A stretch of 6,055 nucleotides of DNA from Escherichia coli. Its GTDB lineage: Bacteria; Pseudomonadota; Gammaproteobacteria; Enterobacterales; Enterobacteriaceae. The stretch is from the NCBI RefSeq assembly GCF_048403405.1, contig NZ_CP183132.1; one strand, written 5' to 3'. The position numbers were made by a program, and so were the translations under genes. The notes beneath the pieces are model-generated. The model did not search any database and was not told where the DNA came from. It saw only the letters and a list, made by a program, of their open reading frames with translations. Shown piece after piece: positions 1,036 to 6,055 of this stretch. The first letter of the stretch is position 1; every line of letters starts with the position of its first letter.

Positions 1036-1227
1036 TCAGCGGTTTTCACCGTCATCCCCGAAGCGTGCGAGGCAACTGCGGTAAAGCTCATCGGCGTGGT
1101 CGTGAAGCGATTCACAGATGTCTGCCTGTTCATCCGCGTCCAGTTCGTTGAGCTTCTCCAGCAGCGTTAATGTCTGGCCTCTGATGAAGCGGGCCATGTT
1201 AAGGGCGGTTTTTTCCTGTTTGGTCAC
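1036..1227 (-). CDS. rop: Rop/Rom RNA one modulator, 63 aa, GTG start
   Basis: Translation VTKQEKTALNMARFIRGQTLTLLEKLNELDADEQADICESLHDHADELYRSCLARFGDDGENR is essentially identical to ColE1/pMB1 Rop. GTG at 1227-1225 is preceded by ggaggcatca (SD), as in pBR322. The 87-aa ORF in the ORF track (1036..1299) is an upstream in-frame extension. Confidence 0.95.
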   Translation of the reverse strand: MTKQEKTALNMARFIRGQTLTLLEKLNELDADEQADICESLHDHADELYRSCLARFGDDGENR

Positions 1228-1258
1228 TGATGCCTCCGTGTAAGGGGGGGTTCTGTTC

Positions 1259-1615
1259 ATGGGGGTAATGATACCGATGAAACGCGAGAGGATGCTCACG
1301 ATACGGGTTACTGATGATGAACATGCCCGGTTACTGGAACGCTGTGAGGGTAAACAACTGGCGGTATGGATGCGGCGGGTCTGCCTGGGTGAGCCGGTTG
1401 CCCGTTCCGGGAAGCTGCCGACACTGGCACCGCCGTTACTGCGTCAGCTGGCCGCCATCGGGAATAACCTTAACCAGACAGCGAGGAAGGTGAACAGCGG
1501 GCAGTGGTCTTCCGGTGACCGGGTTCAGGTGGTGGCCGCACTGATGGCCATCGGGGATGAGCTGCGCCGGCTGCGTCTGGCGGTCAGGGAACAGGGGGCG
1601 CGGGATGATAGTTAA
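1259..1615 (+). CDS. mbeC: MbeC/MobC-like relaxosome accessory protein (ribbon-helix-helix); alternative start ATG 1292 (MLTIRV…)
   Basis: MLTIRVTDDEHARLLERCEGKQLAVWMRRVCL… matches ColE1 MbeC, whose truncated 5' part is also retained in pBR322. ATG 1259 has aaggggggg 8 nt upstream. Stop TAA 1613-1615 overlaps the mbeA start. Confidence 0.8.
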   Translation: MGVMIPMKRERMLTIRVTDDEHARLLERCEGKQLAVWMRRVCLGEPVARSGKLPTLAPPLLRQLAAIGNNLNQTARKVNSGQWSSGDRVQVVAALMAIGDELRRLRLAVREQGARDDS

Positions 1616-3170
1616 GTTTCATGCCAGGGGAAAAGGTGGTGGCAGTGGTCCGGTTGATTACCTGCTGGGAAGGGAGCGTAACCGGGAAGGGGCAACGGTG
1701 CTTCAGGGGAATCCGGAAGAGGTCCGGGAACTCATCGATGCCACGCCATTTGCGAAGAAATACACGTCAGGTGTTCTGTCGTTCGCGGAGAAGGAGCTGC
1801 CGCCTGGAGGGCGTGAAAAAGTGATGGCGAGCTTTGAGCGTGTACTGATGCCCGGTCTCGAGAAAAATCAGTACAGCATCCTGTGGGTGGAGCACCAGGA
1901 CAAGGGACGGCTTGAGCTGAATTTTGTCATTCCGAACATGGAGCTACAGACCGGAAAACGCCTCCAGCCGTACTACGACCGGGCAGACAGGCCGAGAATT
2001 GATGCCTGGCAGACGCTGGTGAATCACCATTACGGTCTGCATGACCCCAACGCCCCGGAGAACCGCCGGACGCTGACCCTTCCTGATAACCTGCCGGAAA
2101 CGAAACAGGCGCTTGCTGAGGGCGTCACACGCGGGATAGACGCGCTTTACCATGCCGGAGAGATAAAAGGCCGTCAGGATGTGATTCAGGCGCTCACAGA
2201 GGCGGGGCTTGAAGTGGTCAGGGTGACGCGAAGCAGTATCAGCATTGCAGACCCGAACGGCGGGAGGAATATCAGACTGAAAGGAGCGTTTTATGAGCAA
2301 TCTTTTACAGACGGGCGCGGAGTTCGAGAAAAAGCTGAAAGAGAGAGCCGAATCTACAGAGAAAATGCTGAACGACGAGTTCAGGAAGCTCGAAGAATCT
2401 GTAAACAGGGAACTGACCTCAAACGAATCTTTAATCAGGAACGCTATCAACGACCATACAACAGCCCTGAAAGAACTGCTGGAGAGGTATCAGAAAACGA
2501 CCGTCGATACGATGGACGCGCACTGGAAAACCGTACTGAAAATGAGCGTGAAACGCTGGCTGTGGCTGATTATCGTCTCAGTACTGATGTTTGCCACGAC
2601 CGGGAGTCTGCTGTGGTACCAGGGCATGAAGATAAACGCGAATATGAATATTCTCCGCGAGCAGAAAGAGAGTCTGGAGAAGCTGAACGCGAAGACATGG
2701 GGCGTGCGTTATCACGAGGACAGCAACGGACGTTTTCTGGTGTTGCCGAAGGGGATGAAAGCCGAAACGAACTGGACGAAGGACAACGGCAAACTGAACG
2801 CAGTGAGACTGGTGCAGGAGTGACAGAGCATGACGGAGCTGGAAAGACATTTGCTGAACGCATTAGAGCAACTGCAACAGGACTATATGCAGCGGCTGAA
2901 CGAATGGGAGAACGCCTTCGTGGAATTGCAGAAAATGTTTTCGCTTACGCAACGGGACAACGCGATGCTGAACGGGCGAGTCATGCAGTTGAGTCAGCAG
3001 GTGCAGCACTTGAGCGAGCGGACAGAACGCTTGAGCCAGTTATACAGCGAGAACAGGAGATAAGGGATGAACGGCTGATGCAGGAACGCGAACATGAGTT
3101 ATCTCTGGAGCGGGAGCGTCAGCCGGAAATCCAGGAGCGGACACTGGATGGCCCTTCGCTGGGATGGTGA
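1605..3170 (+). CDS. mbeA: MbeA relaxase, MOB(HEN) family, 521 aa
   Basis: MIVKFHARGKGGGSGPVDYLLG… is the ColE1 MbeA N-terminus, with catalytic Tyr19 (1659-1661) and the H97-E104-N106 motif (VEHQDKGRLELNF). ATG 1605 is preceded by gggggcgcggg. The E/R-rich low-complexity C-terminal half is typical. The ORF track's 537-aa call (start 1557) is an upstream extension. Confidence 0.9.
   Translation: MIVKFHARGKGGGSGPVDYLLGRERNREGATVLQGNPEEVRELIDATPFAKKYTSGVLSFAEKELPPGGREKVMASFERVLMPGLEKNQYSILWVEHQDKGRLELNFVIPNMELQTGKRLQPYYDRADRPRIDAWQTLVNHHYGLHDPNAPENRRTLTLPDNLPETKQALAEGVTRGIDALYHAGEIKGRQDVIQALTEAGLEVVRVTRSSISIADPNGGRNIRLKGAFYEQSFTDGRGVREKAERESRIYRENAERRVQEARRICKQGTDLKRIFNQERYQRPYNSPERTAGEVSENDRRYDGRALENRTENERETLAVADYRLSTDVCHDRESAVVPGHEDKREYEYSPRAERESGEAEREDMGRALSRGQQRTFSGVAEGDESRNELDEGQRQTERSETGAGVTEHDGAGKTFAERIRATATGLYAAAERMGERLRGIAENVFAYATGQRDAERASHAVESAGAALERADRTLEPVIQREQEIRDERLMQEREHELSLERERQPEIQERTLDGPSLGW
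2293..2823 (+). CDS. mbeB: MbeB mobilisation protein, 176 aa, one TM segment; nested inside mbeA in a different frame
   Basis: MSNLLQTGAEFEKKLKERAE…WLWLIIVSVLMFATTGSLLWY… matches ColE1 MbeB. SD aaggag lies 6 nt upstream of ATG 2293. The gene sits entirely inside mbeA at +1 offset, the known ColE1 arrangement. Confidence 0.85.
   Translation: MSNLLQTGAEFEKKLKERAESTEKMLNDEFRKLEESVNRELTSNESLIRNAINDHTTALKELLERYQKTTVDTMDAHWKTVLKMSVKRWLWLIIVSVLMFATTGSLLWYQGMKINANMNILREQKESLEKLNAKTWGVRYHEDSNGRFLVLPKGMKAETNWTKDNGKLNAVRLVQE
2830..3063 (+). CDS. mbeD: MbeD mobilisation / entry-exclusion-like protein, 77 aa; nested inside mbeA
   Basis: MTELERHLLNALEQLQQDYMQRLNEWENAF… matches ColE1 MbeD. SD aggag lies 9-10 nt upstream. 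The gene starts 7 nt after the mbeB stop, in the same frame as mbeB. Confidence 0.8.
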   Translation: MTELERHLLNALEQLQQDYMQRLNEWENAFVELQKMFSLTQRDNAMLNGRVMQLSQQVQHLSERTERLSQLYSENRR

Positions 3171-3250: not shown

Positions 3251-3375
3251 GTTAAAATTTATCAGGTGCGATCGCGGCAGTTTTTCGGGTGGTTTGTTGC
3301 CATTTTTACCTGTCTGCTGCCGTGATCGCACCGAACGCGTTTTGGCGGTGCGTACAATGCGACGTTATGGTAAAT
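3251..3375. other. cer: cer-like multimer resolution site: accessory sequences plus XerC arm GGTGCGTACAA (3347-3357), 7-bp central region TGCGACG (3358-3364), XerD arm TTATGGTAAAT (3365-3375)
   Basis: Both arms are identical to the ColE1 cer XerC and XerD arms as I recall them. The upstream ~100 bp (…atcaggtgcgatcgcggcagtttttcgggtggtttgttgccatttttacctgtctgctgccgtgatcgcacc…) closely matches the ColE1 cer accessory sequence. It lies between mob and the cargo segment, as cer does in ColE1. Confidence 0.8.
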
Positions 3376-3459
3376 GGAGCGGATTTTCAGGAAGGAGTGA
3401 TACTAACAACTCGAACACTGTGCAAATAATGATTTTTTTAAAATATCGGTAACGATAAT

Positions 3460-3500
3460 AAATTATTTCGTTTTACGCCGGTAATAAATATAATGTAGTT
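3460..3500 (+). promoter_or_regulatory. candidate sigma70 promoter for the cargo operon: perfect -10 TATAAT at 3489-3494, AT-rich UP-like upstream, weak -35
   Basis: ataaaTATAATgtag sits ~50 bp upstream of the ORF A start. No good TTGACA is present at the 17-bp spacing. Alternative -10 tatata at 3505-3510. Confidence 0.35.
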
Positions 3501-3543
3501 TCAGTATATAAAAAAATATATGAGGTGTCTTGTGGGAGCTTTC

Positions 3544-4596
3544 ATGAATCTTCAACAACGTATAAATAAACTACCACAATTATCATCCAGTTTTTCATTT
3601 GGAAAAGATATTGATAATATTCATTCATTTATCTTTAACGAAACTTCTAAAGATAAAATTGAAGATTTACTAAGAAAATGGGTGTCAGGCAATCAGCCCT
3701 GTGTATTTGGTAAATTGGCAAGCAAGAAAATTAAAGGGCTTGATTTCCATTTATCTATTGTAAATAGCCCCCAACTATATAATGATGATGGTCATTTGTT
3801 TGATTTTTTGCGTAATGAAAGAGTTCGTTTTAAAGAACGCGCAAGAAGAGGAGAGGTCAGTGCGCATCTCATTTATTTTATTCATCCACAACTTGCCTTT
3901 GCTCGTCCATCAGAAGAGTTAGTGGACATACAAAAATATATTTGTTCGCTGCATATGCCAGAGTGCTATCCAATAAAAGAGGATGTTATTTATACTGAAA
4001 GCGTACCATTTCAGGATAAAGATGGGCTAAAAATATATAAGGCTGGTGTTAATGTTTTTTACTCTTCTGCTCATAGAACAAGAAATCATGATAGAAGAAT
4101 ACCAGGGGGAATACTTATTTCTGTAAATGCCCCGGGGCATTTTATGAGGCTGGCGATAGAAAAAGGTTTCTATAAAGATCAAGAACAAGCGTTAGCGGAT
4201 ATTCGTAACATGACTATTCAGTCTGTTGGTAAGGGTGGGTATTCACATCCGGAAGGGATTTCTACAACATGGCATTCAGAATCTAATTTGGATCGTTTTG
4301 GATGCCCAGTGCACACCGGTAATAGTTCTTATTACAGCGGTTTTTATCATACTGATGTATTAATTCCAGGAGAATTAACTAAGGATGAAAGATTGCTCCA
4401 TGAAATAGAAAATAGTGATCCAATGATCTTCAACTGGAATGTATTGTTTTATGTTTCATTAGAAGAGTTTCCTATAGATGATCCTTATTATGGAGAGTTT
4501 ATTGGTATTCCTGTAGATGATGCATCTATGTTTTTTAACTCCTTTCAACCAAGGAAATTTGAAAACAAACCCCTTTATGAGAAAGAGGATGATTAA
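3544..4596 (+). CDS. hypothetical cytoplasmic protein, 350 aa; no recognisable family; first gene of the cargo operon
   Basis: A 1.05-kb uninterrupted frame in ~30% GC DNA, where chance ORFs of this length are very unlikely. ATG 3544 has GGGAG (3534-3538) 5 nt upstream. The ORF track's start at 3520 has no SD. No signal peptide or TM segment. Stop TAA 4594-4596 lies 1 nt before the ORF B start. Confidence 0.8.
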   Translation: MNLQQRINKLPQLSSSFSFGKDIDNIHSFIFNETSKDKIEDLLRKWVSGNQPCVFGKLASKKIKGLDFHLSIVNSPQLYNDDGHLFDFLRNERVRFKERARRGEVSAHLIYFIHPQLAFARPSEELVDIQKYICSLHMPECYPIKEDVIYTESVPFQDKDGLKIYKAGVNVFYSSAHRTRNHDRRIPGGILISVNAPGHFMRLAIEKGFYKDQEQALADIRNMTIQSVGKGGYSHPEGISTTWHSESNLDRFGCPVHTGNSSYYSGFYHTDVLIPGELTKDERLLHEIENSDPMIFNWNVLFYVSLEEFPIDDPYYGEFIGIPVDDASMFFNSFQPRKFENKPLYEKEDD

Positions 4597-4597
4597 T

Positions 4598-5464
4598 ATG
4601 ATTAAAGGAATGCTTTTTGCTTTTTTAGCAGCGTTCTCATGGGGGGCAGCTATCGTAATGAGCAAAAAAGGAGTTGAAGAACTAGATGCCGGAGGGGTGT
4701 TTTTCTGGCAGATTTGTAGTGCAGTAATACTATCTTGGATAGTTCTTTTTATAAAAAGAAAAAAACTCCCATTAAACTCAAAAGCGATACTTGCTTATGC
4801 GACAGGCGTTTTTGAACCATTCTTAGCGTATACTTTTACACTCTACGGACTTTATTTTATTTCAGCAGGAAGCGCATCAATTATTTTTTCACTTGAATCA
4901 GTGTTTATATTGGTGTTGTCTGTTCTTATTTGCTCAGTTAAAATTAATTCCCCGCAATATTTTATATTGTTCCTTATAGGTGCAATTGTTGGCAGTATTT
5001 TGGTAGCCTTGCCAGACATCAGTAATGGATCGAATAATATTGTTGGATATTGTCTTGTTGTTGCCGGTGTGTTATCGGCAGCATTTTATGTTGTTATATC
5101 GTCTCGCCTTATTAAATCGTTTGAGCCTATCACATTATTGAGCGGACAGTTGACATTCTCCCTTATACTGTCATCGCTCTTTATTTTTATATCTAAATCA
5201 TCAATTTATCTTCCGTTGGAATCCGTGATTATTGTTTTTTCATCTGGAATATTACAATATTTTTTAGCTTTTTGTTTTTACTTGAACTCCTTGCGTTGGC
5301 TCCCAGTTCATTTGGCAGGGATAATGTTGTACTTTATTCCGCTAGTTGCATTATTTTTGTCATGGTTGTTTTTGGATGAACAATTCACATTCTTACAGGG
5401 GGTAGGATTTATTGTAACTGTGCTAAGTGTATATTTTCTTAACAGAAAATACTCAGAGGAGTAA
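4598..5464 (+). CDS. EamA/DMT-superfamily permease, 288 aa, ~10 TM helices (two EamA repeats)
   Basis: N-terminal LFAFLAAFSWGAAIVMSKK matches the EamA signature (…F.WG..F…K). About 10 hydrophobic spans alternate with short loops (e.g. GGVFFWQICSAVILSWIVLFI, IVGYCLVVAGVLSAAFYVVISS, LPVHLAGIMLYFIPLVALFLSWLFL). ATG 4598 has SD AAGAGGA 8 nt upstream (ATG 4589 is also possible) and is translationally coupled to ORF A. The ORF track's start at 4517 would overlap ORF A by 80 nt and is unlikely. Confidence 0.9.
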   Translation: MIKGMLFAFLAAFSWGAAIVMSKKGVEELDAGGVFFWQICSAVILSWIVLFIKRKKLPLNSKAILAYATGVFEPFLAYTFTLYGLYFISAGSASIIFSLESVFILVLSVLICSVKINSPQYFILFLIGAIVGSILVALPDISNGSNNIVGYCLVVAGVLSAAFYVVISSRLIKSFEPITLLSGQLTFSLILSSLFIFISKSSIYLPLESVIIVFSSGILQYFLAFCFYLNSLRWLPVHLAGIMLYFIPLVALFLSWLFLDEQFTFLQGVGFIVTVLSVYFLNRKYSEE

Positions 5465-5631
5465 CATTCTGTTCAGGATTGCCCCCCGGCCTCCATCGAT
5501 ACCGTGCCAAATGCACGTAAAAAACGGGAGCGTTTCTGGTGTCGGAATGTAACCAAGGGGGTCAGAGGCGCGCTAAAACGCTCTCAGGGGAGTCAAATAG
5601 AGACGTTTGTAACAAAAAGATCAAAGGATCC

Positions 5632-6055
5632 TCTTGAGATCCTTTTTTTCTGCGCGTAATCTGCTGCCTGTAAACGAAAAAACCGCCTTGCAGGGCGGTT
5701 TGATCGAAGGTTAAGTCAGCTTGCAGACTGCTTAACCAGGTAACTGTCTTATGCGAGACGAGTCACCAAAATTGTTCTTCTAGTGTAGCCGCACTCCGGC
5801 AGCCACTTCAAGTACTCTCTAAATATCTCGCACATGACTTTTACCAATGGCTGCTGCCAGTGGCGCTTTGTGGTGTCTTTTCCGGGTTGGACCCAAGAGA
5901 ACAGTTACCGGAGAAGGCGCAGCAGTCGGGCTGAACGGGGGGTTCCTGCATACAGCCCAGCCCGGAGCGAACTGCCTAAGTCGCCCCGAGATACCAGAAG
6001 ACGTGAGCTATGAGAAAGCGCCACGTGTCCCGTAAGGGAGAAAGGCGGAAAAGGT
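5632..6055. repeat. terminal redundancy: exact copy of 1..424 caused by reading past the circular junction; plasmid unit length 5631 bp
   Basis: 5632.. tcttgagatcctttttttctgcgcgtaatc… equals position 1 onward, through …aaggcggaaaaggt = 411..424. The ORF 5847..6035 duplicates 216..404. Confidence 0.95.

Follow-up and report, generated by a model that had tools for sequence, protein, structure and literature searches.

Which compound does the small drug/metabolite transporter (DMT) encoded at positions 4598–5464 of a 6,055-nt Escherichia coli window move across the membrane, and what has the gene directly upstream of it, open reading frame A (ORF A, 3544–4596), to do with the traffic? The window, by which we mean the whole stretch of DNA that was analysed, is a complete circular plasmid of 5,631 bp followed by a 424-nt terminal redundancy (1–424 = 5632–6055; 203–382 recurs at 5834–6013). 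The main interest lies in the pair and not in the permease alone: this is a widespread ‘cryptic’ plasmid whose sole payload is an unexplored enzyme–exporter cassette. Our answer is that the DMT very probably transports the substrate or the product of ORF A.

The transporter and its upstream partner

ORF A ends with TAA at 4594–4596, a single spacer base (T, 4597) follows, and the DMT gene begins with ATG at 4598–4600 and ends with its stop codon at 5462–5464 (288 aa), exactly the coordinates and the 1-nt spacing given by an earlier, sequence-only reading of this DNA. The RefSeq coding sequences on identical plasmids agree (WP_001053268.1, ‘hypothetical protein’, 3544–4596; WP_001335763.1, ‘DMT family transporter’, 4598–5464). 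A longer in-frame DMT start at 4517 is unsupported; homologues of 287–289 aa align over 100% of the 288-aa form. The Shine–Dalgarno sequence AAGAGGA (4583–4589), with a GAGG core, lies inside ORF A, 8 nt before the DMT ATG; it had been called strong, and although it is present its strength is decent, not exceptional. The junction (4583–4600, plus strand) combines the features of a translationally coupled pair, namely genes on the same strand, the TAA-T-ATG arrangement, a Shine–Dalgarno sequence within the upstream ORF and a layout conserved in homologues, where start and stop overlap by 4–13 nt (pairs of E. coli, Edwardsiella, Algicola and Steroidobacteraceae). The coupling to ORF A proposed by the sequence-only reading is thereby borne out. 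The 1-nt spacing implies that the two genes are probably co-transcribed and coupled in translation; the ‘stoichiometric’ co-expression that had also been read from it is more than such a spacer can show.

The identification as an EamA/DMT permease holds at the level of both sequence and fold. The Pfam EamA model (PF00892) matches twice, at the two tandem repeats, with E = 4.6e-44 (150.4 bits; cut-off 28.2), and the AlphaFold (AF2) model (pLDDT 88.7) consists of ten long transmembrane helices. Foldseek pairs this model at a probability of 1.00 with all solved DMT folds [TM scores: TPT (5y78) 0.86, LicB, the second best, 0.76, and YddG (including 5i20) 0.66–0.68; SLC35B1, Vrg4, CST and PfCRT are further matches at this probability], and identity to the solved DMTs is 13–16%. 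A sequence search of the PDB with the DMT returns noise only and no sequence-level relative. All curated subfamily cut-offs are missed, with 57.7 bits against the 230 of TIGR00950 (‘2A78’) and 20.3 against the 300 of YddG, and among named relatives a ‘probable indigoidine exporter’ comes closest, at 31% identity. The DMT represents a new clade, linked to an enzyme, within a known superfamily, and its substrate is not readable from family membership. Among the 42 ORF A-linked DMTs, Glu73-Pro74, Glu100, Glu261, Gln184, Tyr164 and Tyr228 are conserved in at least 93%; the acidic residues, in or near the helices, would suit a cationic substrate, which is only suggestive.

The partnership was followed in a species-level survey (one genome per species), which holds 57 loci with ORF A homologues, 50 of them with usable flanks. 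A homologous DMT stands beside the ORF A homologue or in an operon with it in 43 of these 50 loci, spread over several phyla. The distance is at most 150 bp in 28 loci and at most 1.2 kb in 7 more, and a further 8 have the DMT 2.7–4.2 kb away in one operon with ORF A; the remaining 7 loci lack it. Where lineages were examined via called genes, an EamA gene adjoins the ORF A homologue in five out of five. Large plasmids of E. coli carry an ORF A homologue of 75% identity that overlaps its DMT by 8 nt; the Algicola homologue (53%) overlaps by 13 nt and the Steroidobacteraceae pair by 4 nt, the Pseudomonas genes (35%) stand in reversed order, and Rhodopseudomonas has a divergent MarR–EamA pair. 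Edwardsiella has a complete pair, found by starting from the DMT. The two proteins diverge in parallel, with paired identities of 75/71, 62/56, 53/37, 35/33 and 34/31%. The sister family, which hhalign links to ORF A at a probability of 100, served as a control: of its 80 metagenomic loci, including 33 with 2 kb or more of flank on each side, not one has a DMT as a neighbour.

Seen from the transporter, the association is equally regular. All DMT relatives above ~40% identity that were looked up have an ORF A gene or its remnant directly upstream. In a Mycoavidus sp. an intact DMT is preceded by a truncated ORF A comprising residues 193–348 only (L013, 4453–5004), and in an apparently solitary DMT (43% identity) 47 codons of the ORF A C-terminus (292–338) are fused to the annotated start (L015, 5034–5171). 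Decay of ORF A upstream of an intact DMT suggests that the transporter can outlive the enzyme. The sequence-only reading had held that membership of a subfamily of firmly known substrate, with normally solitary genes, would speak against it; the DMT reaches no curated cut-off, and its close relatives follow an ORF A gene or remnant.

That two functionally unrelated genes came to lie together by chance on a compact plasmid is extremely improbable, and effectively refuted by the synteny across phyla, the parallel divergence, the overlaps and the DMT-free sister family. To judge from the sequences the pairing is ancient, with an adjacency far beyond chance. The expectation that the permease moves the substrate or product of its companion enzyme is well supported, because synteny, parallel divergence and the sister family without a DMT all point the same way.

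Some further observations concern these relatives. The sister family (A3, L079–L158) comprises proteins of 340–395 aa with QPC and WWxDHRxP motifs; an unannotated ORF of ~511 aa without Pfam match is a neighbour in 39 of the 80 loci (convergent in the one locus checked), and a caspase-domain protein is nearby in 11. The second allele of the pair (~75%/71% identity, 8-nt overlap) resides on conjugative E. coli plasmids of 105–130 kb, where it adjoins PIN/Phd and Fic/Phd toxin–antitoxin modules; one such locus (L002) has a GFO_IDH_MocA oxidoreductase and a second EamA gene further on.

ORF A, its fold and its genomic company

ORF A (best start 3544; 350 aa) is a ‘hypothetical protein’ in RefSeq. 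A word-indexed search finds 96 relatives, all unnamed and without Pfam domains, and an exhaustive profile search finds 413 cluster representatives (E ≤ 1e-3), a family of considerable size to which no database gives a name. Pfam, NCBIfam and PADLOC contain no model that matches ORF A, which rules out a known defence or resistance protein. The alignment has invariant residues at Cys53 in QPCxFG(R/K), A176-H177, H182-D183-R184-R185, GxGG (229–232), W243 and Y264/Y268/D271 in YSxxYHTDVLxP; the corresponding motifs of ORF A are QPC (51–53) and AH-x4-HDRR (176–185). This pattern is enzyme-like, and the protein is predicted to be a cytosolic enzyme. Reading H177…H182-D183…D271 as an HD domain was dropped, as the model is an α/β sandwich without HD-domain structural matches.

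The ORF A model adopts the α/β ‘sandwich’ fold of AglA, and YqcI/YcgG (PF08892) is its best and sole outstanding structural neighbour. The YqcI/YcgG family, known as ‘FPC/CPF motif-containing’, includes the haem-thiolate guanidine N-hydroxylases AglA, DcsA, GntA and ChmN. ORF A resembles these enzymes in an invariant cysteine within an xPC motif after the N-terminal helix and in an Arg-Arg motif followed by a later CP motif, in the same order; Cys53 of ORF A may correspond to Cys44 of AglA. QPC (xPC) is invariant in ORF A and the sister family, and the later CP(F) is found in many members; ORF A itself carries CPV (252–254), the cysteine of which is not invariant in the family. In the hhalign alignment, which is non-significant, the motif order is QPC/F(S/P)C, HDRR/ARRF and CP/CPF. 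The two families also meet in nature: P0121, a soil-metagenome protein of 622 aa (L075–L077; gene 2530–4398 of L075), fuses an ORF A-like domain to a true PF08892 domain (E = 2.5e-47), and the core of the sister-family protein P0169 ends in RCPFKK, identical to the end of the YqcI domain of P0121. Both families are found near arginine or guanidino enzymes and exporters. To judge from its model, ORF A may be an unrecognised member, far diverged and related in fold, of the surroundings of an enzyme class that was defined only recently. Nitric-oxide synthase oxygenase domains are thiolate-haem arginine hydroxylases; Foldseek matches of ORF A to them are weak (TM ~0.2, probability ≤ 0.35) and unreliable.

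The neighbours of ORF A homologues add a chemical context. An actinomycete operon present in nine species (L026, L028, L030, L031, L033, L035, L039, L048 and L061) contains ORF A, a DDAH-like gene, a pyridoxal phosphate-dependent decarboxylase of the diaminopimelate/ornithine type and a saccharopine-dehydrogenase-like gene, then the DMT where the flank reaches; a tenth actinomycete, Hamadaea, has the operon without the DDAH-like gene. The DDAH-like protein scores 247 bits on a mycobacterial dimethylargininase model and ~227–230 bits on arginine-dihydrolase models, and because of these scores it is taken to be a hydrolase of arginine guanidino groups. In Catelliglobosispora a SARP pathway activator and an ornithine-cyclodeaminase-like ORF stand ahead of the operon. 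The conserved actinomycete operon has the appearance of a small, undescribed biosynthetic gene cluster. In the locus of the P0121 fusion, the next genes encode a pentein-like protein that weakly matches the C-terminus of DDAH (4.7e-5), a MatE efflux pump, an OprB porin and a MOSC protein. Behind a close YqcI homologue that is not fused come the same pentein-like gene, here truncated, then genes for a pyruvoyl arginine decarboxylase and a MOSC protein. Enzymes of the MOSC/mARC type are reductases of N-hydroxylated guanidines and amidoximes. We infer from these neighbours an arginine-type guanidino chemistry with an exported product. The sequence-only reading had left the substrate blank; partner enzyme and neighbours would narrow it to arginine or guanidino compounds. 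The serine/threonine dehydratase and RimJ-like genes that lie upstream of the Algicola pair are found at no other locus and probably have nothing to do with it.

A scheme can be drawn from this material. ORF A would be a haem oxygenase with a cysteine ligand, whose fold is a distant relation of that of the YqcI/YcgG guanidine N-hydroxylases, and it would turn an abundant cellular arginine-type metabolite (guanidino or amino) into an N-oxygenated derivative. Its electrons would come from host ferredoxin/flavodoxin systems (Fpr/flavodoxin), no partner being encoded. The DMT, itself produced through translational coupling, would carry the product out of the cell, which would amount to secretion and at the same time keep the cytoplasm of the producer clear. 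The complete sequence of steps, from synthesis to export of an N-oxygenated arginine-like metabolite, stands in our estimate midway between doubt and acceptance; outward transport by the DMT, taken by itself, is rather probable.

Several points weigh against this scheme. The link between ORF A and YqcI/YcgG is drawn from a predicted fold, short motifs and one fusion, at an identity of ~7%. PF08892 has no match at E ≤ 10 in ORF A or any of its 57 relatives (Pfam), and two sister-family proteins give sub-threshold matches only (0.015 and 0.11). Three hhalign comparisons with YqcI/YcgG are non-significant [probabilities of 1.2% (P = 0.046), 0.3% and 0.5%], and PDB sequence searches with the ORF A profile and with the YqcI domain return noise only and do not retrieve AglA. 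Because the profile–profile comparisons are non-significant, ORF A is not filed as a PF08892 member: the model gives it a YqcI/YcgG-like fold with a plausible haem-ligand cysteine, and it is not demonstrably one of the family. Moreover, ORF A exceeds AglA in length by ~110 residues and possesses a separate set of invariant His, Asp and Tyr residues, and its chemistry could therefore differ. A reductase or ferredoxin partner, which the characterised YqcI/YcgG enzymes need, is not conserved in the neighbourhood of ORF A homologues.

These differences are what would be expected if a product is indeed made and exported and ORF A is no haem N-hydroxylase, an old α/β sandwich scaffold having been turned to a different chemistry or substrate with H177, H182, D183, R184, R185, Y264, Y268, H269 and D271. 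The failure of sequence profiles to join the two families, the extra residues together with the many invariant polar residues that lack a YqcI/YcgG counterpart, and the missing redox partner all speak for such an enzyme, and the two domains of the fusion protein may supply two activities and not one duplicated. Set against the similar predicted fold, the QPC cysteine and the common motif order, we consider it unlikely.

The direction of transport is the second point of weakness. Some DMTs import, and LicB, a choline importer, is the second-best structural match of the model. The DMT could then bring in a guanidino or amino compound, with ORF A as the first catabolic step and a nutritional gain to the host; the Catelliglobosispora neighbours, arginine-dihydrolase-like and ornithine-cyclodeaminase-like, are possibly catabolic. 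Export is favoured over uptake because a MATE efflux pump takes the place of the DMT in the fusion locus. A single enzyme without a downstream pathway on the plasmid would free no usable carbon or nitrogen alone, and the SARP regulator and the PecS/PecM-like layout of homologous loci favour export too, which leaves uptake for catabolism improbable.

Thirdly, the commonest neighbour of ORF A after the DMT is a MarR-type regulator (30 of the 57 loci), an association that also fits inducible detoxification. ORF A would then modify a toxic exogenous guanidino compound or amino-acid analogue, the DMT would pump out the compound or its product, and the plasmid would spread through the protection that it gives its host in the gut or in animal husbandry. 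MarR-type regulators are typical of ligand-induced resistance operons, and GNAT acetyltransferases, often antimetabolite-resistance enzymes, lie near ORF A homologues in six loci and in Algicola. The occurrence of an identical plasmid in three genera isolated from poultry, pigs, humans and wastewater, and of derivatives with aph(3')-Ia in the same slot, would suit a resistance function as well. Yet PADLOC and NCBIfam models do not match ORF A, the actinomycete operon is biosynthesis-like (with a SARP activator in one case), an enzyme and a pump directed at one toxin are partly redundant, and the plasmid cassette has neither sensor nor regulator. Detoxification is on this balance an unlikely reading.

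Lastly, literature searches (plasmid name, protein accession, ‘D-type microcin’, ColE1+EamA) yielded no functional information on the plasmid or on either protein, and no product, phenotype or publication for the cassette; the plasmid appears in papers merely as a sequence reference.

The plasmid and the limits of the cassette

The plasmid is of the mobilisable ColE1 type. Many deposited plasmids are 100% identical to it, including the 5,631-bp plasmid of E. coli sequence type 131 (ST131) JJ1886 (NC_022662.1), and identical copies occur in Salmonella enterica, Klebsiella pneumoniae and K. oxytoca, with humans, poultry, pigs and wastewater as sources. The cargo block is present in 118 of 5,426 complete E. 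coli genomes (~2%), without exception on plasmids and with at least 99% identity in all records but one. Assemblies that bear the names Pseudomonas sp., Rhizobium wenxiniae and Collinsella sp. also contain fragments 100% identical to the cassette, the contigs being 0.4–7.6 kb long (L017, L022, L024); contamination or very recent transfer is the most likely explanation.

RefSeq annotates an identical copy with Rop, MobC, MbeB, MbeD, a ‘hypothetical protein’ and a ‘DMT family transporter’. In the window rop lies within an ORF at 1036–1299 (minus strand) and mbeC/mobC at ~1292–1615, both part of the ColE1-type backbone. The relaxase ORF (1557–3170) holds the nested mbeB (2293–2823) and mbeD (2830–3063), and RNAI is at 5674–5774 (minus strand). 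The gene table that PLSDB gives for the identical plasmid omits the relaxase.

By megablast, hundreds of other ColE1-type plasmids are similar up to ~3375 and again from ~5597–5615, and GC content is 33–37% across 3400–5470 against ~53–60% in the backbone. Because of this interruption and the drop in GC, the cargo is taken, from the sequence, to be a foreign block of ~2.2 kb that lies between the origin and a cer-like site and contains two genes only, the ORF A–DMT pair with a GC content of 35%. The last backbone feature and left boundary of the cassette is a putative Xer recombination core read from the sequence, GGTGCGTACAA-N7-TTATGGTAAAT (3347–3375, plus strand), which we take to resemble the ColE1 cer core; an inverted repeat (3265–3280/3317–3332) lies just 5' of it. 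The AT-rich leader of the cassette follows on the plus strand (3376–3543), with GC falling from ~0.53 to 0.33–0.35. A promoter in this leader would drive a bicistronic ORF A–DMT mRNA; the one sigma-70-like match there is weak (3403–3430, score 9/12), and in a promoter scan of the leader sigma-70-like sites are no commoner than in shuffled sequence. Both genes are on the plus strand. Behind the DMT stop, a GC-rich tail of ~130 nt (5465–5597, plus strand), peculiar to this plasmid group, extends to the resumed ColE1 backbone and resembles neither the common backbone nor the low-GC cargo. A consensus scan places a terminator-like hairpin and T-run at 5623–5652 (plus strand), just upstream of the RNAII/RNAI region; it is a plausible end of the cassette transcript, which would thus stop ahead of the origin. 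Expression would be constitutive, since there is no MarR gene or other regulator on the plasmid and the ColE1 replicon is multicopy.

No transposon- or insertion-sequence-like repeats were found around the cargo. Kanamycin-resistance derivatives of the same backbone (NZ_CP018120.1, 5,310 bp, and similar Salmonella plasmids) retain ORF A codons 1–94 only, aph(3')-Ia replacing the remainder of the cassette; the cargo slot is therefore regarded as a hot spot of exchange.

Comparison with known systems

Were a reactive arginine derivative made and secreted by this pair, a very successful ‘cryptic’ plasmid would gain a function, and a Pfam-less branch of ~400 clusters would join the newly recognised non-P450 haem-thiolate N-hydroxylases. 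One DMT clade would also gain a defined enzyme partner, which is rare in this poorly understood superfamily. The resemblance of ORF A to those hydroxylases, described above, is limited by its failure on the Pfam model, its greater length, its low identity, the variable CPF cysteine and the lack of a redox partner nearby.

For the transporter, the nearest known systems are the exporters EamA/YdeD, RhtA, YddG and PecM, with which it shares two EamA repeats, the 10-helix DMT fold and a length of ~290 aa; unlike them, it falls below every curated cut-off and is marked by an obligate enzyme partner. The homologous chromosomal loci, which often have a MarR gene beside the DMT, recall PecS/PecM, whereas the present plasmid has no MarR gene.

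The closest chemical parallel is the D-cycloserine pair dcsA/dcsB, where a YqcI/YcgG hydroxylase yields N-hydroxy-arginine and an arginase-type enzyme splits this into hydroxyurea and ornithine (PMC12866846). The actinobacterial ORF A operons likewise would place a guanidine N-oxygenase before a guanidino hydrolase, with the DDAH/arginine-dihydrolase-like gene directly downstream; their hydrolase, however, belongs to the pentein superfamily and is no arginase, and the plasmid cassette is without a hydrolase.

In architecture the plasmid is closest to the ColE1-type colicin and microcin plasmids (ColE1, pColD-157), which have the same RNAI/RNAII origin, rop, mbeABCD, cer-like site and low-GC cargo between cer and the origin; the RNAI/II regions of pColD-157 and pJJ1886_3 are near-identical (PMC5841774). 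The cassette sits in the slot that colicin operons occupy on related plasmids and would probably act as a competitive or ecological payload. It differs from these systems in lacking genes for a bacteriocin, for immunity and for lysis as well as any precursor peptide (neither ORF A nor the DMT matches a bacteriocin family in Pfam or NCBIfam), and its product, if any, would be a non-ribosomal small molecule. The combination of a production gene with an export/immunity gene is also that of microcin C with its MccC efflux pump. On a speculative and quite unlikely reading, ORF A could produce, and the DMT export and confer self-immunity to, a non-ribosomal, arginine-derived N-hydroxy-guanidine antimetabolite, a small-molecule ‘microcin’ borne by a pandemic ColE1-type plasmid; the cassette could even be the determinant, never sequenced, of a ‘historical’ microcin of low molecular weight such as microcin D93. 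Reviews describe microcin D93 as plasmid-borne, smaller than 1 kDa and positively charged, as an inhibitor of DNA synthesis with immunity via efflux, and as a microcin whose gene was never identified (PMC10233263, PMC6795089). An N-hydroxyguanidine would, hypothetically, fit these properties. N-Hydroxyguanidines and hydroxyurea-type compounds inhibit ribonucleotide reductase, so that a block of DNA synthesis would be explicable. The cassette bears in this way on an old question, that of what encodes the small non-peptide microcins of enterobacteria.

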